Below, one piece after another: positions 8,430 to 61,858 of a DNA stretch of 64,000 nucleotides; the stretch's first letter is position 1, and the number at the start of each line of letters is the position of its first letter. This DNA is from Promethearchaeota archaeon (GTDB taxonomy: Archaea > Asgardarchaeota > Lokiarchaeia > Sigyniarchaeales > SOKP01): positions 1-64,000 of the forward strand of contig JBHLON010000005.1 of NCBI GenBank assembly GCA_048940445.1. Direction: 5' to 3'. A program made the translations under genes and the position numbers. The notes below the pieces were generated by a model. That model worked only from the letters and a program-made list of their open reading frames with translations, searched no databases and was not told the DNA's origin.

Positions 8430-9845
8430 GTGAAAAATTTGAGTGACCTAGAGGGTTTAACAAGGAATTTAATAAAAAAAGGAGATTCAGATGGAAAAAT
8501 TCTTCAACGTTTAGTCCAAGAATATTTTGATTTTAAAGAAATAGAGAAAGAATCTGCACTAAGGAATGCAAAAGCGATCCTAGAAGAATGCAAAAAAAGT
8601 GATTTAAAATCTGTATCTAATAGATTCATAAAAAATTTATTGAAAGTAAATAATTCAGGAGTTACCGTTGGTACTCAAGGTGTTGGTTGTCGAGGAGCAG
8701 GAGATTTTTTTGTTCATAAATTGATTGCAGAATTATCAGAAACAAAAGCTAAAGCATATTTATCTCCTAAATCTCTAGATGACGCTGGAGCAGTAAGGAT
8801 TTCTGATGTTGAAGATTTAAAAACCAATGAAGATCTCATAATCGTATCTAAGATGGAAGGTATTCATAGCCGCTTGAGTGATTTTCCATTTTTGTGTGGC
8901 TTTCATGTAATTTTATGCAGTAGGTTTGCATAAAGCGTATCGAGGGCTGCACTTAGGGATTTATACGTTAAGGGTTCTATTCCTATTTCTATAATGGTTG
9001 ATGCTCACCTAGGAGATGATGCTGATGTTGGAAAACTATTCGATTTTATGGCAGGTGTGTCAGCAATCTCAGAGTTAGCTCAAGTTCCTATAACGGCGGG
9101 GTCAACCTTAAGAATTGGAGGAGATATGGTTATCGGAGAGAGGTTCGTTGGAGGTCTTGCCGCAATTGGGATAGCATCGAAAAAACTCCTTGCTAGAAGG
9201 CAAATTCAACCTGGTGATAAAATTCTCATGACTGAAGGAGCAGGAGGTGGTACTATCACTACTACAGCAATTTATTCGGGAAATCATGAGATAATAAAAG
9301 AAACTTTAAACATTAAGTTTTTAGAAGCTTCAAAAATCATTTTAAATTCGCCCTATCTTTCTAAAATTCGAGCGATGTGTGATGTCACTAACGGGGGTTT
9401 AAGAGGAGATCTTTACGAAATAAATTACGAAGCTGGATGCGGAGTAACGATCTATGAAGAAAAAGTAAGAAGTTTAGTAAACAAAAATGTATTATCCTTA
9501 TTAGACTCAGTACATGTTGATTATTTAGGAGTATCATTAGATGCATTATTGATATATTGTTCCCAGGAAGTCGTTGGTGATATCATTCTAGATCTCGAAA
9601 AAAATCACATTAAATGTGCCGAGATTGGATACGTGGATGATTCAAAAACAGTTTCAATGATTTCTCAAGATGAAAAACAAAACATTTTACCACGTTTTAG
9701 GGAATCAGCTTATACAAAAATAAAGCAAGAAGTAGGTGAAGAAACTCCTAAGAATATAGAACAAATGGAAATAAGATTGAAAGAAGCAGCAAATGAAGCT
9801 TTTGAAAAGCGAAACAAAATAATTGAATATTTGTCTCATAATTAG
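8430..9845 (+). CDS. AIR synthase-related protein (PurM/HypE/SelD superfamily), spliced as join(8430..8910,8941..9845), ~461 aa
   Basis: The two ORF-track pieces are the N- and C-halves of one family (GVGCRGAGDF, LDDAG, GIHSRLSDFPFL; DAHLGDDADV, GSTLRIGGD, DVTNGG). Removing 8911-8940 gives GFHVTRAALRDLYVKG. Confidence 0.88.
8911..8940 (+). other. 30-nt BHB intron in an mRNA (AIR synthase-related gene)
   Basis: Outer stem GGCUUUC/GAGGGCU, central helix AUGU/GCGU, bulges AA|U and AU|C, inner stem UUUAUGCA/UGCAUAAA; contains an in-frame TAA. Confidence 0.88.
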
Positions 9846-9848
9846 CAA

Positions 9849-10667
9849 TCATGTAAGTACTTCATTAAGGGAACCAGACCGAAATCCTTCTAGATCAATT
9901 GTAATATAACAAAAACCTAATTCTCTAAATTTAGTTTTAATTTTATTTATATTTTTTTTATTTAAGATTTGTATTAGGTCTTCTTGTAAAAGCTCAATAC
10001 GTGCAAGTTTCTCTTCATGATATCTGACTCGTAACTGCTTCAAATTAAAATTACTTCTTAAAAATCTTTCACCTTCTCTTATCATGGTCAGTTTTTTTTC
10101 GTCTATTGGTTGATTATAAGGAATACGTGATGAAAAGCACGCCATAGAAGGTTTTCCTTTAACTTCTAAGTTATAAAATTCTGCAATTTTTCTTATATCT
10201 TTTTTTGTTAGATTAAAATCAATATAAGGTGTAGCGATATCTAATTCATTTAAAGCTTGCATTCCTGGTCTATAATCAGAGAGATCATCTTGATTTGATC
10301 CATCAAGAATTACATCAAAATTCTTTTCATTTTTAATTTTGATAATGTCCCTATATAAGCCGGTTTTACAGATATAGCATCTATTATGAGGATTTTTCTT
10401 AAATTCTTCATTTTCAAGTGGATTTCTTTTAATTATGAGGTGAGGTATATCATATGTTTTTGCAAATTTACTTGCATCTTGAATCTCTTCATCAGGATAA
10501 AGGATTGATTTTTCTGTGACAAGAAGTGTATCCTTTGCATGTTTTTTTGATAGAAATGCAAGAAGACTACTATCAACTCCACCAGAAAACGCAACAATTA
10601 CTTTTTTATCAGTTAAATATGATATAAGTTTTTCTGCTTTAGATTGTAGATTAAATGATAATTTCAT
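9849..10667 (-). CDS. larE: ATP-dependent sacrificial sulfur transferase LarE family (PP-loop)
   Basis: AFSGGVDS, RCYICK, DYRPG, ACFSSRIPY, LRVRYH, GFRSGSLN. Confidence 0.88.
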   Translation of the reverse strand: MKLSFNLQSKAEKLISYLTDKKVIVAFSGGVDSSLLAFLSKKHAKDTLLVTEKSILYPDEEIQDASKFAKTYDIPHLIIKRNPLENEEFKKNPHNRCYICKTGLYRDIIKIKNEKNFDVILDGSNQDDLSDYRPGMQALNELDIATPYIDFNLTKKDIRKIAEFYNLEVKGKPSMACFSSRIPYNQPIDEKKLTMIREGERFLRSNFNLKQLRVRYHEEKLARIELLQEDLIQILNKKNINKIKTKFRELGFCYITIDLEGFRSGSLNEVLT

Positions 10668-10706
10668 TCTATTTAAAAAAGTAATAGTAATTAAATTAAT
10701 TTTCTG

Positions 10707-11429
10707 TTATAAATTCTTTAATATAAGGAAAGCTATAGGAATAAGCCATAAGAAAGAAGCAAATAACATAATCCATTCAAGAAATTGTAGAGTAACTGAA
10801 TAAGGAGGGAAAATAAATAAAATGCTGGCAGTAAAAGGACCAATCATCATATATAATCCAAGAATCCTTGGAAAAATCGTTTTTTTTAATAAAATTGCAA
10901 TACCATTGAATAACGCTCCAAATGCTAAGCTTACAAATACTAAAATTGAAAAAGTGAAGTGTAATCCTAAAGCAGTTGTTCTATCTTCGCTAAATAATCC
11001 AATACCAAATAATCCAACAGATGCTGATATAAGAGACATTAATCCTAATAAAGCATGAATATCTACATATACGTAAAAAAATCTCTTTAAAAATGATTGA
11101 TTTGAGTCATAAATAATATTTCTAGTATTAACAACAATACTTTTTGTAATATAAAAATGAACTGGAATTAAAAAGAACGCAGTGGCCATAGCTATTGCAT
11201 CTAAGATGAAAGGTGTTGGCGTATAATGCATTGAACCTAAGTCGCTTATATAATTATTAATTATATTATAGCCTTCTGGGCCAAAAAAATATGCTATTAG
11301 TACTGCAATGAGTAATCCGGGCAAAAATGTTATTAAACTTGCATAGATGCCGAACCTTACAACCCTTTGACTTGTTAATTTATTATAAATATTTTTTAAT
11401 TTTTTTGGAAATTGATCTACTCTTATCAT
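10707..11429 (-). CDS. Multi-pass membrane protein, DUF998-like
   Basis: YNIINNYISDLG, GIGLFSED, LHF, LEW; about 6 hydrophobic segments. Confidence 0.6.
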   Translation of the reverse strand: MIRVDQFPKKLKNIYNKLTSQRVVRFGIYASLITFLPGLLIAVLIAYFFGPEGYNIINNYISDLGSMHYTPTPFILDAIAMATAFFLIPVHFYITKSIVVNTRNIIYDSNQSFLKRFFYVYVDIHALLGLMSLISASVGLFGIGLFSEDRTTALGLHFTFSILVFVSLAFGALFNGIAILLKKTIFPRILGLYMMIGPFTASILFIFPPYSVTLQFLEWIMLFASFLWLIPIAFLILKNL

Positions 11430-11493
11430 TTACAATTATAATCTAAATTTAGCTTTAAAATTAATTGAAAATTAAAAAAAAAAGAAAAATAGT

Positions 11494-12777
11494 TTAATAT
11501 ACATTTTTTATCTTTTGAATTTTATAGATTTTATAGAAATTACCAATCATTCCTCCAATTATTCCAAGGACTATAATTATTATGACCCAGAAATAAATGA
11601 TATAAGCTATATCAGAAGTATTTAATAGAATTATATGTATAGTGTCACCTGAAAAGAAGGAAATTGGGAAAATTTCTGGTTTATCAATTAGAAATAAAAA
11701 TAAGGGTATATAAATAGCATTATAGCATGTTTTTATTCCTAATACAATTTGTTGGGCTGTATAATTTCTAACACCTGCAATTAATCTAACGAGATCAAAT
11801 AAACCACCTACAAATATTAATAGCCCAAAAAGTTTTAACCAATCTAAAAATTCAACAGCAAATCCACTAATTCCTGCGAAGGGTTGTACTATTAAAAATA
11901 ATCCAAAAATTATTCCTGCAATAGCTCCAAAGATAAGTTCACCTAAAGAAACAGGTTGCATCTTTTTCATTTTTCGTTTTTGCTCTGCTATTGCTTTCTT
12001 TTCCTCGCGAAGCCGCTTACTTCTTTCCAATTTTTCTTCCCTACGTATTCTTGCCTCTAATAATCTTTGTTCTCGTCTTAATTCAGTTGCTGCTAATCTT
12101 TCTTCTCTTAAAGCTTTAACTTCAGCTAATTTATCTTCAACCCTAGCTTGAGATTGAGCAATTACCTCTCTAACTTTTGCTTTTGCTTGCATAAGTCTTT
12201 CTTTTGTGTATTCTTTAGTCTCTTGTAAATCTTGCTGTGTAAGATGAAAAGGGAAAATTAGTGCTAATCGGGAGGGTATTACCCCAAAATCTTCTGGTAA
12301 AAAGCCCTGCATTGAGAAAAATACGAATATTCCAGTGATGACTATAGCTGTGATTAAACATCCAATCCATATTCCTGTAATCATACCGCCTATTGCTTCC
12401 CAAGGTGAAAAAAACAATCTAAAGATTCCAATTATAATGTTTAGAACGATAACAACAATAAAAAAGAAAAACATTGTTCTTAAGTAAAATTCAAAAAGTT
12501 CCTCAGTTATATATAACTTGGGAGTACCACGCTTTTTATAAAACCTTGCGATACTTTCTGGAGATCCAATTTGTATTAATGCTTGTTGGATATCAGCTGG
12601 TGAAGGATCTCCTCCACCAGCGATTTTTTTCGCTTCTTCTAAGATCTGTATATTAAGATCATTTAATATCGTATTAACTTCCTCTTTTTTGGGTTTTAAC
12701 CATTCAGGTAATTTCTTTCGTACTTGTTCTAAATAATTATTAACCGTTTCGTTTTCAGAATAACTCAAATTAAACAA
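11494..12777 (-). CDS. Membrane protein with N-terminal HAAS-like domain and a central charged helical insert
   Basis: VNNYLEQVRKKLP...IGSPESIARFY; TM segments flank an E/R/K-rich stretch. Confidence 0.55.
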   Translation of the reverse strand: MFNLSYSENETVNNYLEQVRKKLPEWLKPKKEEVNTILNDLNIQILEEAKKIAGGGDPSPADIQQALIQIGSPESIARFYKKRGTPKLYITEELFEFYLRTMFFFFIVVIVLNIIIGIFRLFFSPWEAIGGMITGIWIGCLITAIVITGIFVFFSMQGFLPEDFGVIPSRLALIFPFHLTQQDLQETKEYTKERLMQAKAKVREVIAQSQARVEDKLAEVKALREERLAATELRREQRLLEARIRREEKLERSKRLREEKKAIAEQKRKMKKMQPVSLGELIFGAIAGIIFGLFLIVQPFAGISGFAVEFLDWLKLFGLLIFVGGLFDLVRLIAGVRNYTAQQIVLGIKTCYNAIYIPLFLFLIDKPEIFPISFFSGDTIHIILLNTSDIAYIIYFWVIIIIVLGIIGGMIGNFYKIYKIQKIKNVY

Positions 12778-12934
12778 CCTTACGATTTTTATAGCAATTT
12801 AATTTTGATAAATAAAGATAAGATTTGGATTTTATTAAAAAATTTGGAGACCAGTTTTCAATAATATCTTTTAAATGATAGTAGAGCTAATTTATTTATA
12901 ATAAGCTAACTAATAATTAAAATCAAAAACAGGT

Positions 12935-14362
12935 ATGAAAAATAATCCCAATAAAGCTCAAGAAATTAAGAAACGGAGAAAATTTGGAATACATCTAACC
13001 TCAAAAGAAATTTTTCATAAATATATTTATCCAGAAATAAAATTAGATCTAAATGATTATATCTGGCTTGACTCTTACGCTGGGGAAGGTAATTTGATTT
13101 TACCAATCTTGGAATACATAGATCCGAGTAAACGGGAAGAATTCTTTTTAAATCATCTATTTCTTTTTGATGTTCAAGAGGATATGGTTGAAAAAAGTAT
13201 AAAAAATGCTCAATTGTATGGAATATCAGAAGAAGTTGCGAAATCTAATATATTTATTCGAGACAATTTAGAGAGCTTTCCTCAATTTCTTAAAGAAAAG
13301 GAGTTTCCAATTTATCATATCACTAATCCCCCCTACTTATATTTAGGATATATTAAAAAGCACCTTGAAACGCAACAATATCTTAAATACTTTAAAGATA
13401 AAAATAACGGTTATCAAGATTTATATCAAATTGCTATGATAAATGATTTAAGAAATGGAATTGAAAATTTAATTTATATTATCCCTTCAAATTTTCTATT
13501 CGGAGCCTCAGTATCCAACAAATTTCGATTAGATTTCTTAAAAAACTATAAAATAAATAAAATGATTATTTTTGAGATTAAAATCTTTGAATTTACAGGA
13601 TCTCATATATGTATTGGCTTTTTTAAGAAAAAAATTGAATCTAAAATAGAAAATGTAAAATTTTCAGGTATCAAGATCAAGAAAGGAAATCAAATTATTC
13701 AAAAAAATTACATGTTAAAGGCTAATCATAAATTTAGAGCAGGATATGAATTCGATGAATTTTTAAAAAAGTATTGTGCCATTTATCCCTTAAAAGTAGA
13801 GTATTATTTATCACAAAAGATGGTTTCTCAAAATTTAGGAAATTATAAAGTTAAAGTAATTGATGCTAATCAATATAAAAATAATGAATATAAAAAACAA
13901 TATTTAGAAATTAACGAAAAATTGAAACATAAATTAGAATCAAATATATTGTATGTAAGAACTGTCGATACTGGTTCTCAAAACGGAAGAGCCGGATTAG
14001 AAATTATTTATGATGACTTTCATGTTCAGGGAATATATGTCTCTAAAAAGCCTTATCGAACTCATCCAATCCAAATATTCTTCGATCCACAACTACCAAA
14101 AGATGATCTAATTTTACTAAAAGACTATTTCAATTATATATTAGAACATTATAGAAACTTTTTAGATAGTGAATTTCTAACAACTTATAAATATTCAAAT
14201 GCGGATTATACTAGAAAATACTTAGGTTTAAATCAAACAAGAAGACTAATTGAAACCTTTCCTTTTAAAAAATTAACTGAATCTGATAAGCAGAATCTTA
14301 ACAAGTTAATAAAAGCAGACTTATTTGAAGACATTGTGCAATTATTAGATGATTTTAAATAA
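12935..14362 (+). CDS. Putative N6-adenine DNA methyltransferase
   Basis: DSYAGEGNL (motif I), ITNPPY (motif IV), YIIPSNFL. Confidence 0.7.
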   Translation: MKNNPNKAQEIKKRRKFGIHLTSKEIFHKYIYPEIKLDLNDYIWLDSYAGEGNLILPILEYIDPSKREEFFLNHLFLFDVQEDMVEKSIKNAQLYGISEEVAKSNIFIRDNLESFPQFLKEKEFPIYHITNPPYLYLGYIKKHLETQQYLKYFKDKNNGYQDLYQIAMINDLRNGIENLIYIIPSNFLFGASVSNKFRLDFLKNYKINKMIIFEIKIFEFTGSHICIGFFKKKIESKIENVKFSGIKIKKGNQIIQKNYMLKANHKFRAGYEFDEFLKKYCAIYPLKVEYYLSQKMVSQNLGNYKVKVIDANQYKNNEYKKQYLEINEKLKHKLESNILYVRTVDTGSQNGRAGLEIIYDDFHVQGIYVSKKPYRTHPIQIFFDPQLPKDDLILLKDYFNYILEHYRNFLDSEFLTTYKYSNADYTRKYLGLNQTRRLIETFPFKKLTESDKQNLNKLIKADLFEDIVQLLDDFK

Positions 14363-14366
14363 CTTT

Positions 14367-15239
14367 TTAAATACTTGCAAGTAAGAATGCTACTAAACCT
14401 AAAAAGGCTCCTACCTTCAAAAATAAACTGATCTTCTTAAAGTCTCCGTATGCCGACTTGACAAAAAACATTAATATTATAGCATATCCTACAGCTACTA
14501 ATCCAAAAATCATAGAGACTAAAAACAATGGATGGTTAAGAATAGGAGTAAAATAGGGCAGGATAAAGAAAATTATCGCTGTAAACGAAAATATGATAGC
14601 CAATTTTGTAGATTTTTCTATACCAATCATAATTGCTAATGTTTTTACATGTAATTCACGATCTCCCTCAACATCTTCACATCCCTTTATCACTTCACGC
14701 GAGAGTAATAGAAAGAATGATGTTAAAAAAAAGAAATAAATATATAACGGAATAGTAGCACTATTTAATACTGCTCCATAAATTAATCCTATTGAAAAAG
14801 ATACACTAACAGTCAAATTTCCAAAAAATCCACTCTTTTTACCCCATTTAGCATATACCCATCCCATAATTCCAAAAAATACAGCGAGAATAATATTTAA
14901 AAATCCGATTTTAAAATAAAGACTTTGAAAAATAGAAATTGCCACTCCAATTCCAAATGTAGTAAAAAATATAATTTTGGCTTGCTTTAAGCTCACTCTA
15001 CCACTTGGTATTGGTCTTTTTGGACGGTTTATTTTGTCTATTTCAAGGTCATAAATGTCATTAATAACCATACCAGATCCAGCAATAAAGAAATAAGTTA
15101 GAGCCCCTAAAATTATATTTATTATAATAAGATTAAATAATACATTAGTTCTTGTATTTAAAATACCAATTATCACTGTTAAACTTCCCATTAAATCATT
15201 TATGGGACGAATTATTTCAATCGAATCTTTTAATTTCAT
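14367..15239 (-). CDS. Digeranylgeranylglyceryl phosphate synthase (UbiA family)
   Basis: NDIYDLEIDKINRPKRPIPSG, REVIKGCEDVEGD; lipid operon context. Confidence 0.88.
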   Translation of the reverse strand: MKLKDSIEIIRPINDLMGSLTVIIGILNTRTNVLFNLIIINIILGALTYFFIAGSGMVINDIYDLEIDKINRPKRPIPSGRVSLKQAKIIFFTTFGIGVAISIFQSLYFKIGFLNIILAVFFGIMGWVYAKWGKKSGFFGNLTVSVSFSIGLIYGAVLNSATIPLYIYFFFLTSFFLLLSREVIKGCEDVEGDRELHVKTLAIMIGIEKSTKLAIIFSFTAIIFFILPYFTPILNHPLFLVSMIFGLVAVGYAIILMFFVKSAYGDFKKISLFLKVGAFLGLVAFLLASI

Positions 15240-15250
15240 AAGATGGAACC

Positions 15251-16078: not shown

Positions 16079-16087
16079 TATTAATAA

Positions 16088-17482: not shown

Positions 17483-17489
17483 TTTGCCA

Positions 17490-24020: not shown

Positions 24021-25556
24021 TTGCTGGATTTAAACAAAAAGGAATTAGGAGCAGTAGTAACCCCTCAAGAGACTGCAAAATATATCATATCAAAGTTAGG
24101 TAAAATTCAGTCAAATGAGAAGATTTTGGATCCATGCGTAGGTCCTGGAGTCTTCATCAAAATGCTTCTAAATGCAGGGGTAAATAAAAATCAAATATAT
24201 GCTTATGATATTAACCCCAATTATAAAGAACGCATTAATAATTTAGGAATAAGATTTGAATTAGGAGATACACTCCTGAATTTTAATAATAAATCATTAA
24301 ATGCGTTTGATTTTATAATAGGGAATCCTCCTTACCTTAATAAATCGAGTTCCTATGTGAAAAAGAATAAATCGAAATTAAAAAAAGTCTATGGTCATAT
24401 TAGTGCCCATGAAACTTATTCAATGTTTATAATAAATAGTATATGGAGATTAAAAGAAGGTGGTAAATTGAGCTTTATAACTAGCGATACTTTCTTAACT
24501 CTAATAACTCATAAGAAACTTAGAAGGTTTTTACTTGAAAATACTAAACTTAATGAAATATTATTAGCTCCCAAAGATTTATTTTCTAACCAAGGAGTTA
24601 GCACTAACCCTGTTATAATCACTCTAATTAAATGTACAGGAGAAGTTAATAAAATAGAAAGAGACAATAATATAATTAATGTAATACCTCGCCTTAGACA
24701 CGAATCTGAATATTGGAATCCTCCACTTAATTATTATATAAAGCAAAAAAAATATCACATATTACCTTTCAATATATTTTTCATTGATATAGAACAACAA
24801 ATAATCGAATTATTTGAAAAATCACCTAAATTAAGAGAGTTTATTCGAGGTTATATAGGAATGCATACTCATGATAACAAAAAATTTATTGCTGCGATAG
24901 AAAAAACAGATTTAGCAAATATTTTTAATAAAAGGAATGAAAAAATTATGGAATCAGATAAAAAACATAAAATAATTTCCAGAGATGATCTAAATTCAGA
25001 GAATTGGAAACCTTATTTAAAGCGAGGAGGGTCTGACCAATATTACAGACCAATCATGGAAGCTCTTAAATGGAATAAAGAAGCTATTGCAGTATATGAT
25101 ATCCCTAAGAATGTACCTTTTGAACAAGAAGGAATAGTAGTGAGTGGAATAAGCTCCAAATTATCCGCACGCTATATGCCTAAGGGATGTTATTGGGATT
25201 CAAATAAAGCTATTGGTTTTATCGTTCAGGATAAATCTTTTTCTGTATTATATGCTTTGGGTTTATTGAATAGCTCACTGTATAATTATCTCGCAAAGGG
25301 TATTATAAATAATACCAATAGTATTCAAATTTCTGGAATTCATGCATTACCAATCATAAAACCGAATAAAGAAGTAAAATCAAATGTTGAATTATTAGTA
25401 AGTAAAATAATTGAGGAGAAAAAAAATAATTTAAATTATAATTTTAGATCTATTCAAAAAGAAATTGATAATCTTATATATAATTTCTACAATGTTAGAT
25501 TTAATTTCCCTAAAACTCTAAAAAAGAAATTAGATGAGAATTTTTCAATTTATTAA
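24021..25556 (+). CDS. N6-adenine DNA methyltransferase (Eco57I/TaqI-like, with C-terminal specificity region)
   Basis: ILDPCVGPGVF, IIGNPPY, LKEGGKLSFIT, LGLLNSSLYNY. Confidence 0.8.
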   Translation: MLDLNKKELGAVVTPQETAKYIISKLGKIQSNEKILDPCVGPGVFIKMLLNAGVNKNQIYAYDINPNYKERINNLGIRFELGDTLLNFNNKSLNAFDFIIGNPPYLNKSSSYVKKNKSKLKKVYGHISAHETYSMFIINSIWRLKEGGKLSFITSDTFLTLITHKKLRRFLLENTKLNEILLAPKDLFSNQGVSTNPVIITLIKCTGEVNKIERDNNIINVIPRLRHESEYWNPPLNYYIKQKKYHILPFNIFFIDIEQQIIELFEKSPKLREFIRGYIGMHTHDNKKFIAAIEKTDLANIFNKRNEKIMESDKKHKIISRDDLNSENWKPYLKRGGSDQYYRPIMEALKWNKEAIAVYDIPKNVPFEQEGIVVSGISSKLSARYMPKGCYWDSNKAIGFIVQDKSFSVLYALGLLNSSLYNYLAKGIINNTNSIQISGIHALPIIKPNKEVKSNVELLVSKIIEEKKNNLNYNFRSIQKEIDNLIYNFYNVRFNFPKTLKKKLDENFSIY

Positions 25557-45977: not shown

Positions 45978-46542
45978 TTGAGTACTAAAGGAAGATTGGT
46001 TGTAAAGGCTCTTGTGACTGGTGGGAGAGTTATAATTTAACATTCGTTTAGAATAAAACCCCGAATGCGTCAGGAGGGCCACCCATAGGTCCAGCTGTAG
46101 GTCCAACAGGCATAAAATTAAAATCTTTTCGATTTTTTGTGCAAATATAAAAGATGTCGTTGATGCGGTCAATGAAAAAACGATGATCTTCAAGGGCCTA
46201 ACAGTTCCGGTTAGGATTGAATGTGATCCTGAGACTAAACAATTTGAAATTTTTGTTGAAACTCCAAGTACTGCCTCTCTTCTCCTGAAGGAACTGGGCG
46301 TTGAGAAAGGGATTACTTCAGCTTCAGAATCAAAGATTGGTAATCTAACATTGGAACAGGTAATGGCTGTTGCAACCGCTAAGAAAGAGAAATTTTTGGA
46401 CAAAACTTATAGAACTGCTGTGAAAACTGTATTAGGTACAGCGTTATCAATAGGAGCTACCGTTGAAGGAGAAGATCCACGAGTAATTCAAAAAAAAATT
46501 GAAAATGGGGAATTTGATGATAGAATTAAGGGTGAGATGTAA
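45978..46542 (+). CDS. rpl11: 50S ribosomal protein uL11, spliced as join(45978..46027,46066..46115,46145..46542), 165 aa
   Basis: GGTGA SD then TTG. Spliced product [56 protein letters not shown]... has the uL11 N-terminus; first gene of the L11-L1-L10-L12 cluster. Confidence 0.93.
46028..46065 (+). other. rpl11 intron 1 (38 nt, BHB/BHL-like)
   Basis: Helix UGGG/CCCG, cuts AG|A and AA|U, inner stem GUUAUAAUUUAA/UUAGAAUAAAAC, outer UGAC/GUCA; in-frame TAA at 46038-46040. Confidence 0.88.
46116..46144 (+). other. rpl11 intron 2 (29 nt, BHB-like)
   Basis: Helix GCAU/GUGC, cuts AA|A and AA|A, inner stem AAAAUC/GAUUUU; removal gives GINIKDVV. Confidence 0.88.
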
Positions 46543-46545
46543 GAC

Positions 46546-47278: not shown

Positions 47279-48166
47279 TTGATTGGAAAAAAAGCTATTC
47301 CACAATGGAAGAAAAAAGAAGTTAATAGTTTAATAGATTTGTTTAAAAATAATAAAAATATCGCGGTAATTGAAGTTGCTAATTTAAATGATAGACAAAT
47401 TCAAGAAACAAGAAAACTTTTAAGAGGAAAAGCGATTATTAGAATGTCTAAAAAGAATCTACAGTTAAGGGCCATTGAAGAATTTAAAAAAGAATCAAAA
47501 AATTCAAATTTAGAAGAATTTGCGGAGAATATTCCTGGACAATCAGCCTTATGTTTTACAAATATGGATATTTTCGAATTAAAGAAGATTTTTAATGAGA
47601 ATGAGTGGATGGTTCCCGCGAAACCGGAGGAAGTAACTCCAGTAGATATTTGGGTTCCAGCCGGAGATACGGGATTACCTACTGGTCAGGTAATATCTGA
47701 GTTAAATATGACCTTGAAATTGCCAACAAGAATACAAAATGATACTATTTGGATAAGAGATGATACCAGAACACATAAAGCAGGAGATGTTGTTGATGTT
47801 AAACAAGCTGCAGTTTTGAAAAAGTTAGGAATTAAACCTATTGAATCATTAATTAGGATACATTCTGCTTGGAGCGATGGCGAGATTATACCCGAAGATA
47901 TTCTATATATGAATTTAGATCAGTTTAAGCAAGATCTTACAAAAGCTCATAGAGAAGCTCTCGGAATACTATTTGAAATCCCTGTTTTATTTGAAGATAT
48001 GACAAAAGAATATCTCCAAAAAGCAGTTGCAAGTGCTAATTTATTAAGTGCGATTATCTTTGGAGAAGGTTTGCAAGAAACTCCCAAGGTAGAACCTAAA
48101 GTTGAAGAAAAAGAATCTGAAGAAGAAGAAGAAGAACAAGTTGGTATAGGAGGTTTATTCGGCTAA
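47279..48166 (+). CDS. rpl10: 50S ribosomal protein uL10 (P0)
   Basis: IPQWKK, IRMSKKNL, VPAGDTG, LKKLGIKP, acidic tail ending GIGGLFG. Confidence 0.95.
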   Translation: MIGKKAIPQWKKKEVNSLIDLFKNNKNIAVIEVANLNDRQIQETRKLLRGKAIIRMSKKNLQLRAIEEFKKESKNSNLEEFAENIPGQSALCFTNMDIFELKKIFNENEWMVPAKPEEVTPVDIWVPAGDTGLPTGQVISELNMTLKLPTRIQNDTIWIRDDTRTHKAGDVVDVKQAAVLKKLGIKPIESLIRIHSAWSDGEIIPEDILYMNLDQFKQDLTKAHREALGILFEIPVLFEDMTKEYLQKAVASANLLSAIIFGEGLQETPKVEPKVEEKESEEEEEEQVGIGGLFG

Positions 48167-50951: not shown

Positions 50952-50985
50952 AAATTATTCAAATTTATTATTAAAAAAGAAAGTA

Positions 50986-51087
50986 CGCAGACAGAGGGAT
51001 TTGAACCCTCGAGTGCTTTCACACACCAGCTTATTAGGTAAGTGCTTCTCTCCAAGCTGGCGCCGTACCAGGCTAGGCTATGTCTGC
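50986..51087 (-). tRNA. tRNA-Ser(GGA) with an 18-nt intron at 37/38 (51032-51049)
   Basis: Acceptor GCAGACA/TGTCTGC plus G, anticodon stem CCAGC/GCTGG, long variable arm, GGTTCAAATCC; BHB helix TTGG/CTAA. Confidence 0.93.
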
Positions 51088-51162
51088 AAAAAATTTAAAT
51101 AAAATAACGCACACGAGCGTCATTTATCATATTTAAATTAGGGAATTTAAGGTCTTAATTTA

Positions 51163-52163: not shown

Positions 52164-52433
52164 TTATAACTGCCATACAGTTTCTTTAAGAATACTTTGT
52201 AAGCATTTAGCACAGTATTGTCCACTCGCAATTCTATTTGCTCTTCTAGATGTCTTATCTGTTTTTTTCATTTTAGAAGGTCGTAGTCGCGAGATTGATT
52301 GAAGTGGTTTTTTACATACGATACATCGGACTTTACTTGGCTTTCTTCTCCAATAGTGAGTTGTTGTACGGTTTCCTGGAGTTTTTAGCTTTTTTCTTGC
52401 TTGTGTCTTTGATCTTAATCCTGGTCTTGGCAA
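52164..52433 (-). CDS. rpl34e: 50S ribosomal protein eL34
   Basis: MPRPGLRS, KTPG, CIVC, YCAKC. Confidence 0.93.
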   Translation of the reverse strand: MPRPGLRSKTQARKKLKTPGNRTTTHYWRRKPSKVRCIVCKKPLQSISRLRPSKMKKTDKTSRRANRIASGQYCAKCLQSILKETVWQL

Positions 52434-52515
52434 GTTGGTTCCCTTTAGAATCTTTAATTAAAATTTGCCACTTAAATTGATATATTATAAAGTTGAAACA
52501 AGTTAATTAATTTTA

Positions 52516-53178: not shown

Positions 53179-53246
53179 TTATTACTTTAATAGATTAATA
53201 TATAATGATTATATAAAATGAAGATTTAGGATTAATAAATTTATCT

Positions 53247-54155: not shown

Positions 54156-54281
54156 ATTGACTTCTAACTATTTAATTTTTTATATAATTCATATAATTAT
54201 AATCATTTATATGTTTTTATGAAAAAATTTTACTTTTCGCAATTTGAACTCTTAAAATATGATTTTAAAAGGAAATAAAAT

Positions 54282-55352
54282 TTAAAAATATTTAATTATC
54301 AAAGATTTCTTATCTTGAATAATTTCATAATCTCTATTAGTAAAAAGTTTCACTAACTCTAAATTGGTTTTAGTATGACTAGTAATTTCAAGCACTTTAA
54401 TAGATGAAGATTCTTTAACAAAGGCCATGAGTGGGATTAACTGATCACTTAGGTAATTATCGACAGGAATTTGATTGAAAACGTACTTTAAAATTTCCCT
54501 TGACGCCACTTTTCCTAATCTTTCTGAACTTAAATTTCTCTCACCAAGTATGGTCCCCGATGAAATGATTGCTCCTGAATCAGAGTGTGCCCAAAGACAG
54601 ACTCCTACTCCTGGACTGATAGATTTAACCCTAGAACAACTTATATCCATTTCGAAATTTGTATTTCGTTTTATTTCTCGTCTTATTGAATTTTTAATTC
54701 TCTCTCCAATATCCTTCTGTATTAGATTTGAAACAATTATTTCACCCTCAATTAGGTCAATATTTCCTAGTTCGGTAAGGTTGAGTGGCTTTAATTTCAT
54801 TTTAGGTGGTAAGATTTTACATTTAGTCAAGGCTCCTCCTTTCGGGTAAAATCCGAATTCTTCTATTTTAATTACAAGTTCAAGACCACTCATTTTGAAG
54901 AATGGATATGTTACGTTCATTAAGTAATTTAAGCTTGGAGCCCATTTACCAAAAGTACCTCCTCCTTTAATAGAAATCATGATCTGATCATTATGAGAAA
55001 ATCTAAGACTAGAAATCTGAATTGGTTGAATTAATAAGCCAATACTAGCTGCAGTGTCAACATTGACGTTTAAATGATCTTTAATTCTCAGATTTGGGTT
55101 AAAAGTTATTTCCTCTGTACCAATTTTGCATTCTCCATTTATGGCATTAAGTTGACTGCCAGTTAATTTAGCTAAAGTTTGCAATCCTAGAAGATGTTGA
55201 AGGCGTAAACCTCTTTGAGGACGATTAGCCCGAATATTAAATATTCTTATTGGTTGATCAAATAGAAGTGAAAATCCAGCCGCTATACGTAAAATAGAAC
55301 CCCCGCCTTCCCCAAAAGCACCATTAATTTCTAAGTATTTTTTCTTACTCAT
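54282..55352 (-). CDS. rtcA: RNA 3'-terminal phosphate cyclase
   Basis: GEGGGSILR, NIRANRP..GL..QH, GFYPKGG, DQLIP, TSHTKTN. Confidence 0.92.
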   Translation of the reverse strand: MSKKKYLEINGAFGEGGGSILRIAAGFSLLFDQPIRIFNIRANRPQRGLRLQHLLGLQTLAKLTGSQLNAINGECKIGTEEITFNPNLRIKDHLNVNVDTAASIGLLIQPIQISSLRFSHNDQIMISIKGGGTFGKWAPSLNYLMNVTYPFFKMSGLELVIKIEEFGFYPKGGALTKCKILPPKMKLKPLNLTELGNIDLIEGEIIVSNLIQKDIGERIKNSIRREIKRNTNFEMDISCSRVKSISPGVGVCLWAHSDSGAIISSGTILGERNLSSERLGKVASREILKYVFNQIPVDNYLSDQLIPLMAFVKESSSIKVLEITSHTKTNLELVKLFTNRDYEIIQDKKSLIIKYF

Positions 55353-55354
55353 AA

Positions 55355-56506
55355 CTAATTTGTTTCAATATATAGCTGTTTGATTCTTTCTATTCCATTC
55401 TTTTGAATTATTAAATTAGCTACTTCTTTGGGTACTAAACTCTTCCACTCTTGATTGTTTTTATTAATCAATTCTCTAACATTAGAGCCATTATACTTTT
55501 TCTTAAAGATTGTTATTTTCTTCCCCAATTTATATCCCTTGGCCTTAAACAGTTGCCTTACCCATTCACTATTAGAATATATTATATCAAATTCCCCTAC
55601 AATAGATTTAACATGGTTAACCCATTCTTTAGCATTAAATATGTCTGGAATTTCATAAATCTTATATTTCGAGGAACTTATACTTCTTTTTTCTAGAGCG
55701 GTTCTAAGAAATTGGACTCTTTCTTTGCTAGAAAAAGGATTAGTCTTAGTATCAGAGAGTTGAGAGCTACCAATCCCTATTTTAACGAAGTTATGATTTT
55801 TATAAAGTTGATTAAGCACATATAAATGTCCATGATGCAGTGGTTGAAATCTTCCAATAAATAGAGCAATGTCTTTTTTTATAGGATTATTTTTTTGATT
55901 ATCTAACTGGAAATATTTAGTAGGGTCCAATTCAGAAATCTCTTTCCAAATTCTTTTTGAATAATCAATGTATTTTTCATTTTCTAATATATTTTTTAAT
56001 TCTGATTTATTATAAAATCTGCTTTCCTTAACGTCTAATTCTTCTGGATTAGGTTTTAATTCAATATCACATTCTACCAAGCCTAAAAAGATATACGCAA
56101 TTTCCAAGGTTTTTTCATTCGTCTCAGCATTTAGATCATAAAATTTAATTTGAATAAGCGTATTTGGGGATATTCCAAATTCTTCTTGTAATTCTCTTTT
56201 TGCATTATATGTAATATCGTTTATATCGAGATTTTTTTTGTAGATTACATGCCCTGAAGCAGAATCTGTAAAGTATTCTGGAAACTCTTTCTTTTTTTTA
56301 CTTCTTTTTTGGACAAGAAAATGAATGTCATTTGCTGGTGAAATAGCGATTATAAAGACTCGAATAATTAAGTGACTGACTTTTTTTCTGTGAGCCTCTT
56401 GTCTTTCCATAGGATAAACAAATTTTGAAATTTGACCCGAATGTAGATATTTTATATTTTTTTCATCAATGCAAGCTAAGATTTCTTTTTCCATGAGTCT
56501 AGCCAA
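55355..56506 (-). CDS. Nudix (IDI1-like) plus NMN adenylyltransferase (NadM) fusion
   Basis: N-terminal VQKRS..K...SASGHV..AKRELQEEFGI; C-terminal FIGRFQPLHHGH, GIGSSQ, NPFS..ER, NGSNVR. Confidence 0.85.
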   Translation of the reverse strand: MARLMEKEILACIDEKNIKYLHSGQISKFVYPMERQEAHRKKVSHLIIRVFIIAISPANDIHFLVQKRSKKKKEFPEYFTDSASGHVIYKKNLDINDITYNAKRELQEEFGISPNTLIQIKFYDLNAETNEKTLEIAYIFLGLVECDIELKPNPEELDVKESRFYNKSELKNILENEKYIDYSKRIWKEISELDPTKYFQLDNQKNNPIKKDIALFIGRFQPLHHGHLYVLNQLYKNHNFVKIGIGSSQLSDTKTNPFSSKERVQFLRTALEKRSISSSKYKIYEIPDIFNAKEWVNHVKSIVGEFDIIYSNSEWVRQLFKAKGYKLGKKITIFKKKYNGSNVRELINKNNQEWKSLVPKEVANLIIQKNGIERIKQLYIETN

Positions 56507-56507
56507 G

Positions 56508-57344
56508 TTAATTAATTCTAATTATGATAGTATCACCAACTTTAAATCCCATTCTTTCTGCAGCATTTCCTTGATTAAGAGAAATTTCTAATAATCCAGA
56601 GGACCCTTCTAAAAATAAAATTGAGTTCTTTTCTACATTATTGTAATAAGTTGTAAAAGGTCCAATATACTCTTTATCATTTATAAATAAGTGAATCTTA
56701 TCACCCTCTTTCAACGTTAAAAGAGAATTTCCTATCTTTTCTTGGTTTAATGGAACATTTGTAATACTATTTCCAAATTCATCGATATAAATGATCATAG
56801 CTTCTATTTTCCTGTCTGATAGAGAAATTTTATACTTATAGGGGATTTCTACTAAATCTTTAGGATTAAATGGTGGCCCAAATTCTTTTAAATCATGATT
56901 TTTAGAAATATAGGCAGCAACAGGTGCCATTATATCTCTCCCATGAAAAGTATTAGAAACTGGTTTCAAAAAGTATTTTTCGTTTTTTATGTTTACGCAT
57001 TCAACTATATCATTTAATGTAAAAAGATTTGTAAAGATTCCATTGTTAGGTCCAATGAAGTAGTAGTTAGATGTTATTTTGATTGCCACAATCTCTCTTA
57101 GAGAGCCCACTCCAGGATCTACAACTATAACAAAAATTGAATCATTAGGGAAGTAATTATAACACGCTTTTATTAAGAAGGAAGCTTCATACAAATTGTG
57201 GCGACTAACGTTATGATTTATATCTATTATATGAACATTAGGATTAATGTTTAATATTACAGCTTTTATGGTCGCAACATAATGTAAACCCCGTGTTCCA
57301 AAATCTGTAATTAAACCGATAATTCTTTTGTTCAAATTGCCCAT
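56508..57344 (-). CDS. SAM hydroxide adenosyltransferase (DUF62, chlorinase/fluorinase family)
   Basis: LITDFG, VVDPGVGS, GPNNG, TFHGRDIMAP, DEFGN, LEISLNQGNAA. Confidence 0.9.
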   Translation of the reverse strand: MGNLNKRIIGLITDFGTRGLHYVATIKAVILNINPNVHIIDINHNVSRHNLYEASFLIKACYNYFPNDSIFVIVVDPGVGSLREIVAIKITSNYYFIGPNNGIFTNLFTLNDIVECVNIKNEKYFLKPVSNTFHGRDIMAPVAAYISKNHDLKEFGPPFNPKDLVEIPYKYKISLSDRKIEAMIIYIDEFGNSITNVPLNQEKIGNSLLTLKEGDKIHLFINDKEYIGPFTTYYNNVEKNSILFLEGSSGLLEISLNQGNAAERMGFKVGDTIIIRIN

Positions 57345-57350
57345 TTTTCA

Positions 57351-58250
57351 TTAATCTTTATATTTTTCGTCTACTTTGTAGAACTCTTCCAATGCTTTAG
57401 ACTTTAATCTGTATTCTTCCTCTTTTTCAAACTCTACTAGCTTTTTCGATAATTCACTTGCTTCTTTGTATGACAAATAAGCTGAATGAAAATCATCATT
57501 TCTCAAAGAATTTTTAGCATCTTGTACCAATTTATCTCTCTCCTTAGATATTTCTGGAACTTTTTCTGAAAAGTTAGCCTTCTCATTCAAGGATTCAGCA
57601 ATATCTATTAAATACAAAGAATTTGCCATATCTGCAGCTCTTTTATAAAACTTTGCTGCTTTCTCATAATCAAGTGATTTCAAAGCATTCTCAGCGATAT
57701 CATATTGTTCTGAAACTTTTTCATGTTCGCCATTTTCTACCTTTTTCAGAAGATCCTGAGCAATTTTTCTTTCATTCTTTCCTCCACTTAACATAAATTT
57801 CGTAATAGAGATAATGCTTGATTTCAAGGCATCTGGCTTTAAAATATCAATAAAGGGTTCTAGATGTTCATAGTAAATATCTTTTAAAATTGGTTTAAAT
57901 TCGTCTTTAGACAAAGTTAATAAATTTAAACCAATAACTTCAATTGCTTCTGCACCCAATTTAAGAGAAGAACGAAATTTTTCAGGTTTATCATTCTCAT
58001 TCAGTAATAAGCCTATAATTGTTCCCGATGCTTTTCGAGACAATTTTCCTTTGAATTTATATATATAAGAGAAAATTTGGAAATCTTTTATTTTTAAGAG
58101 ATTATATTCATTTTTCCCATGATCAAGATTCAATCTTAGAAAAAGATCATTCGAAACTTCAAAATTTGACTTACCTTCTTTAAAGTAATAGCCCAAAATT
58201 CTATAATCGGCTTCTAAAGGTAATAAAATTACAAAACTTCCTATTGGCAT
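57351..58250 (-). CDS. Hypothetical protein: longin/uDENN-like N-terminal domain plus helical repeats
   Basis: Beta-rich N-terminal ~130 aa, then TPR/SNAP-like helices (YEKAAKFYKRAA, FHSAYLSYKEA); fold inferred by eye. Confidence 0.45.
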   Translation of the reverse strand: MPIGSFVILLPLEADYRILGYYFKEGKSNFEVSNDLFLRLNLDHGKNEYNLLKIKDFQIFSYIYKFKGKLSRKASGTIIGLLLNENDKPEKFRSSLKLGAEAIEVIGLNLLTLSKDEFKPILKDIYYEHLEPFIDILKPDALKSSIISITKFMLSGGKNERKIAQDLLKKVENGEHEKVSEQYDIAENALKSLDYEKAAKFYKRAADMANSLYLIDIAESLNEKANFSEKVPEISKERDKLVQDAKNSLRNDDFHSAYLSYKEASELSKKLVEFEKEEEYRLKSKALEEFYKVDEKYKD

Positions 58251-58324
58251 CGTTATTAAGTCTCCATTAAATTAATTAATACTAAAATATAATAAATGTT
58301 AATCATCCAAATTTAAAGAGTTTA

Positions 58325-58744
58325 CTATTCCTTACAACTCATTATTCTGTTTGTTTCTTCTCTGATTGATTGGATTATGTTTAATAGTTGCGCGTAATAA
58401 AGGTTATTGGATACATTCTTAGCCGCCTGTCTAATTATTTCTATTGCCTTTTTTTCTTCTTCTGTTATACTTTCTAATGATTTTTTTTCATACAACTCTT
58501 TAACCTTTGCATTAAAATCATCTGCAATTTCTTGAATACTCTCACTCGATTTCATTCTAAACTGTTTAAGCACTTCTACAATGAGGCGGATATTTTCATT
58601 GACAGATATAGTTTCTTCAGAAAATTTCTGTGACATAGCTTGAATTGATGTACTCATATGATTAATCTGGGCAATTGTTCCATCTAATGAAGATGTTATT
58701 TGATTAATTTTATTTATCATCTCATTTAATAAATTTTCTGCCAT
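58325..58744 (-). CDS. Helical coiled-coil hypothetical protein
   Basis: Heptad pattern over most of 139 aa; AGGTGA SD. Confidence 0.6.
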   Translation of the reverse strand: MAENLLNEMINKINQITSSLDGTIAQINHMSTSIQAMSQKFSEETISVNENIRLIVEVLKQFRMKSSESIQEIADDFNAKVKELYEKKSLESITEEEKKAIEIIRQAAKNVSNNLYYAQLLNIIQSIREETNRIMSCKE

Positions 58745-58756
58745 GAGTTCACCTTT

Positions 58757-59161
58757 TTATAATTTTGTGGAGGAATATTGTTTTAAATTTTTTACAGAAC
58801 TTATAGCCTCAGATAATAATAAATTCACAGTATCTTGATTTAAGACTTCTCCTGATAGTTTTTGAAATTCATCAAGTTTTTTTATTAAAGTGTTTAAAGC
58901 ATCCAACCCCAATCCTTCTTTAATGCTTTTTAATTCCAATTTAGTGCTTTCACCAATATCTCTTAGAACTTCAATGTGTTTCGTTTGAGTAATTTCTATT
59001 TCCTCTGAAAATGATTTTAACTTTTCGTTTAGATTGGTAATTTTTTCCTCGATATTTTTATTTAAGCCATCCAAGGAAGTGTTTAGCGCTTGGATTGCTT
59101 GACCTAATTGAGCTATTCTTTTATAAATAGAATTTAATAAATCTGTTAGCATTTCAGCCAT
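58757..59161 (-). CDS. Helical coiled-coil hypothetical protein (probable paralog of the neighbouring gene)
   Basis: MAEMLTDLLNSIYKRIAQL vs MAENLLNEMINKINQI; similar length and heptads. Confidence 0.6.
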   Translation of the reverse strand: MAEMLTDLLNSIYKRIAQLGQAIQALNTSLDGLNKNIEEKITNLNEKLKSFSEEIEITQTKHIEVLRDIGESTKLELKSIKEGLGLDALNTLIKKLDEFQKLSGEVLNQDTVNLLLSEAISSVKNLKQYSSTKL

Positions 59162-59341
59162 GATCTTCTCGCTCTTAAATATAAATAATTAAATTCTTAA
59201 TAAATTCATTTTGTAGCTTTAATTATAAATATAACAGAGTACAACAATAAAAAAATTTTTATGTTTTTGAAACTTTTGAATTTTTAAGGAAAATATTTTT
59301 TTAAATGTACAGAAGACTTTAGATAAAATTATCATTCTCTT

Positions 59342-59520
59342 GGGCCATTAGCTCAGACTGGTTAACAAGGTTTTAAAAGCTTGGTCAAAAAGCGCAGGTC
59401 TTATAAATGACCGACGGACATACATCAAATTAAATTGTCTGTTATTAGTAAAAACCTGAGTCTCATTGTGTTTCCATCAATGAGTGAAGGAAATCCGGGG
59501 TTCAAATCCCCGATGGCCCA
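59342..59520 (+). tRNA. tRNA-Ile(UAU) with three introns: 59365-59389 (D arm), 59407-59453 (38/39), 59461-59492 (45/46)
   Basis: Acceptor GGGCCAT/ATGGCCC plus A; spliced 75-nt cloverleaf with anticodon arm CAGGT-CTTATAA-ACCTG and T arm CGGGG-TTCAAAT-CCCCG; intron helices TGGT/GTCA, TTAT/GTAA, CCTG/AAGG. Confidence 0.88.
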
Positions 59521-59531
59521 TTTTTAAAATA

Positions 59532-60212
59532 TTATTTATCTAAATTTGTTGAAATTAAGTTTAAAGTCCACTTCTTTATCTGCATAAGATTTTTTAACAA
59601 TCCTGCTACAAGATTTTCAGGAAACGGTTTTTCTTGGTCAAGATTTTGGACTATGGTCATCCACTTATTTAGGGCTAATTGTACTAGACTCGCACCATCG
59701 GCTTCCATAAATATAGGTATTACCGCAGCACTCTCTCTAGCATCCCCAATAGAGAAATAAATCTTTCTATTCATATCTTTTAACATTACTAAATTTGCGC
59801 ATTCATCCAATTTACGTTCTACTAAAATCATTTTAAGTATTTGAGTTTGAATATCTTTATTCTTTTTTATGAATTGTTCTTTTCTGTTGATTATAAGAGG
59901 TTGTATTTCCGTTACAAGTTTATCTCCAGTGGAATCCTTTGGAAAAAATTTAGTCAATTTGATTACATCGTCTAAGACTTCAATATTAATGAATTTTTTA
60001 GTGTTAGAATAAAAAATTGTTTGAAATCCTCCTTTATCTTCACTAGGAGAGAGTTTAATGAAAATATTTCTCATTGTGATTGAATTACAACAATGATATG
60101 CTAATTCGAATAATTCTTTTGAAGTTAATGGGTTATATGGTATTTGAATATCTTTGAAGAGCCATTGTGAAGATATAACATTATTAAACTGATTTAAAAG
60201 TCGATTCTCCAT
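59532..60212 (-). CDS. Hypothetical protein
   Basis: 226-aa ATG-started ORF; no family recognised. Confidence 0.6.
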   Translation of the reverse strand: MENRLLNQFNNVISSQWLFKDIQIPYNPLTSKELFELAYHCCNSITMRNIFIKLSPSEDKGGFQTIFYSNTKKFINIEVLDDVIKLTKFFPKDSTGDKLVTEIQPLIINRKEQFIKKNKDIQTQILKMILVERKLDECANLVMLKDMNRKIYFSIGDARESAAVIPIFMEADGASLVQLALNKWMTIVQNLDQEKPFPENLVAGLLKNLMQIKKWTLNLISTNLDK

Positions 60213-60308
60213 AATTAGATAACATAATAGTATTTATTATTATATAGTTCTATTCATTTTTATTTATTTTTATTATTTATGTAGAAGAATTAAATAATTT
60301 GATTGATT

Positions 60309-61694
60309 TTACTTCTGTACAATTTGATTATAGGCTTTTTCGAATCTATTAACAGCAAGAATTATATCCCTTGAAGTGGTACCTATAGCAGCATTCATTA
60401 TAATATAGGGAATTGTATAGTTTGAACAACAAGTTCCAAATGCACTTTTTTTAGGATTATATACTCTTGGACCAGTAACCCTTAAGTTATATAAAGCTCC
60501 TCCTAATTCTGATAACTGATCTTCTCTTAAATTTTTTAATGTCATTGCTACTGCAACTGGATTAAATACATCTAAAATTCTCTCATTTATCTTTTTAGCG
60601 ACATTCTCAATTTTTTGTTGTAATAATTTTCGATTTTTCTGTTGAGTAGTTATTAATTTCTGATATCCTTTCAGCCCCAAAGAAAGAATTGAAATCAAAA
60701 TGTTAACAATTGGAGTTGCTGAAGCGCGTCCAGCATAAGCTTGACTTATTTTGATAATCTTTTCTTTATGTGGTGAAGCAATTATCGCCCCACCAATAGG
60801 AGTAAGTACATTTTTATCAGTTGATTGAATTATCGCATCTATTCTTCCCGCATCTATTCCTGAGCGAATCAATTTCATCCATTCTGGGCTCTGAACTCCA
60901 TATGCGTTTATTACAATATGAACAAGATCATTTTCCTTGGCAAATTTACTGATTTCTTTAATATCATCATTTTCACGAGGAGGAAAGAAACTTGTAGAAG
61001 AAATAATCGCAAAGCAATCTTTATCTAATTTTAATTTAAGATTTTCAATTGGAATTCGAACAGCATCTCCAAAAATTTTACCCTCAACAATTTTTGGCTT
61101 CACACCTACTAAATCGATGCCCTTTAAAAGAGATTTATGGTCAATTTGGGGTACTAAGACTGTTCTTTTAGATATTAATGCCTTATTATTCCAATTAGGC
61201 CTTAGAGCGCTAAGACACAAAGCTAATGACATTCCAGTACATAATGGTACCACAATTGCACTTTCAATATTTGGTATACCAAATTTCCTCATAAAGTCTC
61301 GTGTTAAATAATTTGTTAATTCATACATAATAGATCCACCAGGGGCTTTTGGTTGAGGAGCTGTTAAAAACCCACTTCTACCTACACCATGACAAAAGCC
61401 TTGTGAAGTTTTAATATGTAATTTAGACGCTATCCTAGCTTCTCGTTCTCCTACTCGTGCTGCTTTAATGTCCTTATCTGTATCCATATTTGAAAGTGTT
61501 TGTAAGAGATATGCGATTTGTTCATCTGTCCAATGTTCTTTTGGAACACTTTTCTGTTCAAATAGAATTTTAATCGGTTTAAGAAATTCTTTTAATACTA
61601 ATTGTCCTCTATTCAATATATTTTCAGGAATAGATGCAGTTTTAAAATATTCAATAATTTTATTAAACTCAATCAATTTAAACACTTTTATCAT
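60309..61694 (-). CDS. spcS: O-phosphoseryl-tRNA(Sec) selenium transferase (SepSecS)
   Basis: RVGEREAR, HGVGRSG..APQPKAPG, CTGMS, DHKS, NAYG, QSTDKN, YAGRAS; adjacent to tRNA-Sec. Confidence 0.95.
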   Translation of the reverse strand: MIKVFKLIEFNKIIEYFKTASIPENILNRGQLVLKEFLKPIKILFEQKSVPKEHWTDEQIAYLLQTLSNMDTDKDIKAARVGEREARIASKLHIKTSQGFCHGVGRSGFLTAPQPKAPGGSIMYELTNYLTRDFMRKFGIPNIESAIVVPLCTGMSLALCLSALRPNWNNKALISKRTVLVPQIDHKSLLKGIDLVGVKPKIVEGKIFGDAVRIPIENLKLKLDKDCFAIISSTSFFPPRENDDIKEISKFAKENDLVHIVINAYGVQSPEWMKLIRSGIDAGRIDAIIQSTDKNVLTPIGGAIIASPHKEKIIKISQAYAGRASATPIVNILISILSLGLKGYQKLITTQQKNRKLLQQKIENVAKKINERILDVFNPVAVAMTLKNLREDQLSELGGALYNLRVTGPRVYNPKKSAFGTCCSNYTIPYIIMNAAIGTTSRDIILAVNRFEKAYNQIVQK

Positions 61695-61701
61695 AAAGAT
61701 A

Positions 61702-61858
61702 TGGCGGCCCTTGAGGAGATTTTCTAAGATTGGTTAATTTCCAACCATTATCGAACTCCTATCCCTCCGCAGGATAACTAGGTTTGAAGCCTAGCGTCAG
61801 AGACCACTTATCGTTGGAGATCGATATGATCTCAAAACAATTCCGACCGTCAAGGGCC
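61702..61858 (-). tRNA. selC: tRNA-Sec(UCA) with two introns: 61808-61841 (D arm) and 61720-61749 (T loop)
   Basis: 9-bp acceptor GGCCCTTGA/TCAAGGGCC plus GCCA, 7-bp D stem GTCGGAG-TGGT-CTCTGAC after splicing, anticodon arm CTAGG-CTTCAAA-CCTAG, long variable arm, 4-bp T stem GGAG/CTCC (9/4 fold). Confidence 0.93.

Follow-up and report, generated by a model that had tools for sequence, protein, structure and literature searches.

The window analysed here is the whole 64,000-nucleotide stretch G000:C61:1-64000, which belongs to a metagenome-assembled genome (MAG) of a Loki-type Asgard archaeon of the Promethearchaeota (3.64 Mb in 139 contigs, 30% GC, 93% complete). It contains nine micro-introns of 18-47 nt, three of which interrupt mRNAs, namely those of an AIR-synthase-related (AIR-like) gene and of rpl11, the gene of ribosomal protein uL11, and six of which interrupt three tRNA genes (Table 1). 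All can be drawn as bulge-helix-bulge (BHB) motifs, with 4/4 pairs in the central helix of seven introns, and seven end in AA, the exceptions being the AIR intron (AT) and the tRNA-Ser intron (TA). The number, sizes and AA ends of these introns and the two helices with a G.A pair had been proposed in an original prediction made from the window alone, and all were confirmed when the introns were located and removed.

Table 1. Interrupted genes of the window and the introns within them.
Feature	Position	Strand	Description
AIR-synthase-related gene (AIRS_C domain)	8430..9845	+	one gene, 461 aa once spliced
AIR mRNA intron	8911..8940	+	30 nt, BHB, in-frame stop TAA, helix ATGT/GCGT
rpl11 (uL11)	45978..46542	+	sole copy found; 165 aa once its two introns are removed; putative TTG start
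rpl11 intron A	46028..46065	+	38 nt, breaks frame, helix TGGG/CCCG; 16/74 genomes
rpl11 intron D	46116..46144	+	29 nt, breaks frame, helix GCAT/GTGC; 21/74 genomes
tRNA-Ser(GGA)	50985..51088	-	one intron
tRNA-Ser intron	51032..51049	-	18 nt, canonical 37/38, weak inner stem, ends in TA
tRNA-Ile(UAU)	59342..59520	+	three introns
tRNA-Ile D-loop intron	59365..59389	+	25 nt, 21/22
tRNA-Ile anticodon intron	59407..59453	+	47 nt, 38/39
tRNA-Ile variable-loop intron	59461..59492	+	32 nt, 45/46, G.A pair in central helix
tRNA-Sec(UCA)	61702..61858	-	two introns
tRNA-Sec T-loop intron	61720..61749	-	30 nt, G.A pair in helix; G-C in relative G017
tRNA-Sec D-arm intron	61808..61841	-	34 nt, helix GTCG/CGAT

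The annotation splits the AIR-like gene into two open reading frames (ORFs; 8430-8933 and 8994-9845), and most relatives possess a homologue with an intact open frame of 456-508 aa. The intron folds into a full BHB with an inner stem of 8 bp and an outer stem of at least 7 bp, and splicing at the BHB cuts creates an ACG codon for Thr, which most intron-free homologues also have at this position. Seven of the 30 genomes of the genus carry the intron, with a stop in every case, and their inner stems covary through compensatory T-A/C-G swaps. The same intron was the top match of a BHB scan of the window. That scan also matched 55777-55731 in a NadM-like ORF and 47656-47691 in uL10, which were dismissed as false positives because the gene with the NadM-like motif and the uL10 gene are intact; the BHB shape on its own is not specific, since intact genes of the window match it too.

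With default settings ARAGORN detected no tRNA in the raw window, and after removal of the introns it recognized three intron-free tRNAs (Ser, Ile and Sec). The 47-nt intron of tRNA-Ile attains a 4/4 helix in the 38/39 register only, and a shift by one base would give the same mature tRNA. The UAU anticodon of this tRNA-Ile is rare in prokaryotes. SepSecS (60309-61694, minus strand) directly follows the tRNA-Sec gene on the same strand. A T-loop intron has already been published for Loki tRNA-Sec (PMC4989117).

The rpl11 gene offered a test bed that is independent of the motif, as inserts in 74 related genes were defined by alignment alone. This survey yielded 53 inserts in 39 of the 74 genomes, which fall into five sites between nt 49 and nt 100 of the gene. 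A 4/4 central helix was found for 48 of the 53 inserts on the sense strand versus 9 on the antisense strand with equal sliding freedom, and each site uses a single helix register. The helices show double-sided T-A/A-T exchanges as well as wobble changes (in intron A both T-A and A-T occur as the first pair among relatives), and the inserts come in lengths of all three phases. Furthermore, the exon hexamer 5' of intron D is identical in 21/21 carriers and present in 9 of the 53 non-carriers, which is expected if the exon forms half of the motif, with a contribution from shared ancestry. Intron D is missing from its site in the close relative G017, and one of its carriers is the closed chromosome bin108 (CP070831). 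In a genome of another order, the uL11 match at G056:C128:36979-37326 contains one internal TAA, which is possibly another intron.

Across the 3.64 Mb genome, 19 mRNA introns were verified in 16 genes by a pairwise census against G017 (using 2.64 Mb of that genome and 2.07 Mb of aligned source genome), scans for shared introns and a profile scan. The interrupted genes are the AIR-like gene, rpl11 (two introns), metG, a uvrA-like gene, genes of a Rab-like GTPase, an RHH regulator and a rubredoxin, fwdA (two), a longin-like gene (two), the mevalonate kinase gene (MVK), purA, genes of an LMW-PTP, a GH38 mannosidase and an Lsm protein, dnaG and a Zn-ribbon gene, and all 16 give full-length ORFs once spliced. 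The density amounts to about 5 mRNA introns per Mb as a lower bound, compared to which the window (3 in 64 kb, or 47 per Mb) is about nine times richer. In the pairwise census a BHB fit was obtained for 6 of 10 frame-breaking coding inserts versus 1 of 15 frame-neutral ones. G017 bears introns of its own, one of them in the P-loop of EF-1alpha. One of several Lsm/Sm-like genes (G000:C26:3343, minus strand) contains a 31-nt BHB intron in its Sm1 motif, and the Lsm domains of relatives are intact. The two fwdA introns, both 30 nt long, are situated at G000:C47:63579 and C47:64002; the first is in frame and free of stops, and such introns are therefore missed by searches for broken genes.

In a MAG of 139 contigs whose inserts bring stops or frameshifts, one might suspect that pseudogenes or errors of assembly lie behind the interruptions. 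The same sites, however, are interrupted in many independent assemblies by inserts that are diverged and covarying, the flanks are under purifying selection without a second lesion, and no other copy of metG, dnaG, purA, MVK, fwdA or rpl11 was found in the assembly. Relative to G017, synonymous changes outnumber replacement changes (42/21 in uL11, 206/110 in metG, 216/44 in fwdA and 108/38 in dnaG) wherever the two genomes could be aligned, apart from the PTP and rubredoxin genes, where the aligned sequence fits poorly. Selection together with recurrence thus excludes pseudogenes, and the probability left to this explanation is negligible. The proposal that many apparently split or frameshifted genes of this lineage are intact spliced genes is borne out by the purifying selection, but it overstated their abundance, given 19 verified introns in 16 genes.

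The mRNA and tRNA introns resemble each other in size and composition. Their lengths have a median of 30 nt in both groups (21-38 nt, n=19 for mRNA; 18-47 nt, n=26 for tRNA; p 0.31), and both are about 72% A+T and form hairpins. The inner hairpins reach -4.3 kcal/mol, compared to -1.0 in shuffled sequences (SD 0.3). The central helix of the mRNA introns has 4/4 pairs in 17 of 19 cases and 3/4 pairs in the remaining two, and cuts placed by the BHB rule produce exactly the homologous sequence. The 3' bulge begins with A in 18/19 mRNA introns and in 21/26 tRNA introns, although the latter figure is partly circular, as the tRNA intron census is partial, its scoring rewarded BHB features and doubtful calls were dropped. 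The single geometry that had been claimed for tRNA and mRNA introns is supported, as is a common size class. The two groups share no sequence, only shape: the best intron-intron pair scored 22, and the maximum in shuffled sets had a median of 23. The idea that introns spread from tRNAs into mRNAs by being copied is thus left without support. An origin through duplication of palindromic 4-mers was considered and fits a few sites only. A spliceosomal or group I/II nature was rejected on account of the length of 18-47 nt, an AG end in just 2/19 mRNA introns and a GT start in the 21-nt intron alone, and no intron family was among the Rfam matches.

Alternatively, the ribosome could skip the inserts while the RNA stays uncut, either by a bypass of the T4 gene 60 type or by read-through combined with frameshifting. 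The AIR insert would suit such a mechanism, being 30 nt long and containing a stop and a hairpin, with a GTA codon repeated 30 nt apart, and in one intron-free AIR homologue Ser occupies the position at which a hop would place it; in addition, one fwdA insert is in frame and without a stop. In contrast, the junction offset shows no triplet repeat whatsoever in 10 of the 19 mRNA inserts, the inserts of a single site differ in length across all three phases yet preserve the 4-bp helix, and identical structures exist in tRNAs, which are not translated. Bypass could hence fit the AIR insert and not most of the others, and as a general explanation it is very unlikely. An intron-free AIR allele, that of L199 (G032), has Ser with codons as in exon 2 of the intron-bearing form, and looks as if the intron had been lost through recombination between short GTA repeats rather than by precise removal.

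Several observations speak against an interpretation as spliced BHB introns. The compared genomes are related to each other and do not represent independent draws. Four frame-breaking inserts of the G017 census have no BHB fit; a 32-nt frame-breaking insert relative to G017 without such a fit lies in a deacetylase-like gene (C65:2936). Motif-only scans return nearly as many antisense as sense matches, which is why the individual intron calls rest on homology. In 7/19 mRNA introns the local sequence, folded at minimum energy, does not form the central helix, and an outer exon-exon stem of at least 4 bp is present in just 5/19. The mRNA introns that lack an outer stem of this length fall outside the strict hBHBh' subclass and are relaxed motifs, as in cbf5. 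Motif-only scans and scans that combine the motif with ORF joining gave too much noise for a complete census (except at the top, the sense strand scores about as many matches as the antisense strand); the noise stems mostly from operon junctions, and the 19 introns are thus a lower bound. Among the matches discarded as false positives are C104:46839, where the acyl-CoA synthetase is intact, and several junction matches from the profile scan.

The scarcity of outer stems directs attention to the splicing enzymes. The original prediction suggested determining the subunit architecture of EndA and the presence of RtcB, and the genome was found to encode two EndA-family paralogues (C3 and C62), one with the catalytic residues and a second without the catalytic His motif, and one RtcB. 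EndA is probably a two-subunit enzyme with an (alpha-beta)2 assembly. The best PDB match of the catalytic subunit is 3p1z (A. pernix EndA; E 3e-38), and its K-P-R aligns to K44-R46 of this protein, where the Crenarchaea-specific loop (CSL; K44, R46) confers broad specificity (PMC3241643). Retention of a CSL-type loop matters because so few mRNA sites offer an outer stem. An intact gene for RtcA, the RNA 3'-terminal phosphate cyclase, lies in the window at 54282-55352, and DNA methyltransferase-like ORFs occupy 12935-14362 and 24021-25556.

The missing outer helix at many mRNA sites would also be understandable if the mRNA introns were spliced by another nuclease or a factor of their own, and not by the tRNA EndA, and in one study, cited in PMC3241643, His-tagged A. 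pernix EndA hardly cut the cbf5 substrate. This alternative appears highly improbable, however, as just two EndA-family genes were found, one of them with catalytic residues, and as the cut geometry and size equal those of this genome's tRNA introns, many of which, at non-canonical positions, are relaxed too. Taken together, the inserts, their fold potential and covariation, the restored frames and the enzyme genes argue that the inserts are very probably archaeal BHB introns, the mRNA ones being removed by the enzymes that also excise the tRNA introns, with EndA cleavage and RtcB ligation in all likelihood taking place in the cell.

According to the mechanism that we propose, the 3'-terminal hexamers of the upstream exon and of the intron would fold together into a 4-bp helix followed by a 3-nt bulge on each strand, and the AT-rich intron hairpin would hold this BHB helix in place, as judged from pairing potential and covariation. 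By homology, the two-subunit EndA would cut both strands behind the second base of the bulge, and the mRNA sites, mostly devoid of an outer helix, would need relaxed recognition via the CSL-type loop. RtcB would then rejoin the exons and restore the reading frame, whereas unspliced metG, dnaG, purA and rpl11 messages would meet stops or frameshifts. The introns themselves may be slightly burdensome passengers, at least 19 per genome, that come and go, or are swapped between alleles, at a small number of conserved G/C-rich motifs. It is likely, on the basis of sequence, that roughly 20 or more coding genes of this prokaryote, among them genes for replication, translation and carbon fixation, depend on routine and obligatory splicing by the tRNA endonuclease and ligase, with uniform introns of about 30 nt that enter and leave conserved codons within short periods.

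The distribution of the introns among relatives, whose mapping had also been suggested, is patchy. On a tree of 74 genomes built from the rpl11 sequence downstream of the introns, which is unrooted, so that gain and loss are indistinguishable, the three common rpl11 sites require 13, 10 and 19 state changes for 16, 13 and 21 carriers, respectively, and near-identical genomes differ in their rpl11 introns. The metG intron occurs in 3 of 53 genomes only, and three complete genomes of a sister family have no intron in rpl11, AIR, metG or purA, the genes being intact. Such a pattern is in keeping with tolerated passengers that were recently gained, lost or swapped between alleles, and the placement in conserved motifs may in part reflect detection bias. 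At the rpl11 loci L006, L007, L009 and L010, genomes that lie within about 0.03 changes per site of each other downstream differ strongly in the 5' end of rpl11 and in their introns, and recombination between alleles is a likely reason.

A function as regulatory switches that tie expression to splicing capacity, in the manner of XBP1/HAC1, concerns the purpose of the introns and is compatible with cleavage by EndA. Short, frame-shifting and non-spliceosomal, the XBP1/HAC1 introns are removed by a protein nuclease and a tRNA ligase, which is RtcB in animals. They differ from the present ones in that Ire1 cuts at two stem-loops, not EndA at a BHB, and in being conserved and regulated. The frame is mostly broken early in the gene and often within catalytic motifs, and one intron-bearing gene adjoins rtcB, both as would be expected of switches; the patchy presence, with 10-19 state changes per site, the differences between near-identical genomes and the rarity of the metG intron point in the opposite direction. 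Dispensable passengers thus fit the distribution better than conserved regulation, and a switch function is unlikely. The gene next to rtcB is the longin-like one with its two BHB introns (G000:C94:59617-60400, in L033), which is situated directly upstream of rtcB.

The closest known counterpart is the cbf5 pre-mRNA intron of Desulfurococcales and Sulfolobales (Watanabe 2002; Yokobori 2009, PMC2738675), likewise a short BHB or relaxed BHB in a conserved coding motif that is cut after the second bulge base by a hetero-oligomeric EndA and is gained and lost among relatives. In cbf5, one gene is interrupted at one site and the spliced cDNA was shown, whereas here at least 16 unrelated genes in a single genome of an Asgard lineage carry predicted introns, up to three per gene, and rpl11 by itself has five sites. 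According to PMC2738675, further protein genes had been predicted to contain introns, but confirmation was lacking. In Haloferax volcanii, the HVO_1309 mRNA has a 46-nt BHB intron that EndA cuts in vitro, but it is a single case located in the 5' untranslated region (UTR) and leaves the reading frame unaffected (PMC7714728). The literature searched, which covered few subscription journals, contains no report of Asgard mRNA introns, and its archaeal mRNA introns are limited to cbf5 and the HVO_1309 5' UTR, with cbf5 alone within coding sequence.

The six tRNA introns of the window belong to the same phenomenon as the published multi-intron tRNAs of Asgard archaea (bioRxiv 10.64898/2026.10.13.758758; PMC11291895; PMC4989117), with which they share D-arm, variable-loop and T-loop positions, BHB boundaries, an (alpha-beta)2 EndA and no intron copying. 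The preprint is centred on Jordi-, Freyr- and Atabeyarchaeia and makes no mention of mRNA, and the passages found in the other two deal with tRNA introns only. Two thirds of the window finding, namely the tRNA introns, are therefore already known, and what is new is the scale and the range of the coding targets. The original prediction further held that a broad-specificity EndA had allowed introns to spread. The two-paralogue enzyme with K44/R46 agrees with such breadth, but breadth as the cause, which was already proposed for the cbf5 introns (PMC2738675), is unsupported, the preprint regarding EndA as permissive and not explanatory (bioRxiv 10.64898/2026.10.13.758758). Similarly, the suggested bearing on the history of spliceosomal splicing has no support here and no route to spliceosomal introns emerges, considering the different chemistry, the patchy gain and loss among close relatives and the absence of introns at the four genes compared in complete genomes of other families.

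In these genomes standard annotation truncates or loses uL11, MetRS, DnaG, PurA, EF-1alpha, FwdA, Lsm and small GTPases, and consequently marker-gene trees, metabolic calls and lists of eukaryote-like proteins are affected. Short junction substrates make the specificity of EndA on mRNA testable in vitro, and close relatives that differ in single introns provide a direct handle on how BHB introns are gained. If confirmed, these findings would reveal a family of Lokiarchaeia in which interrupted genes are routine and are handled without a spliceosome.

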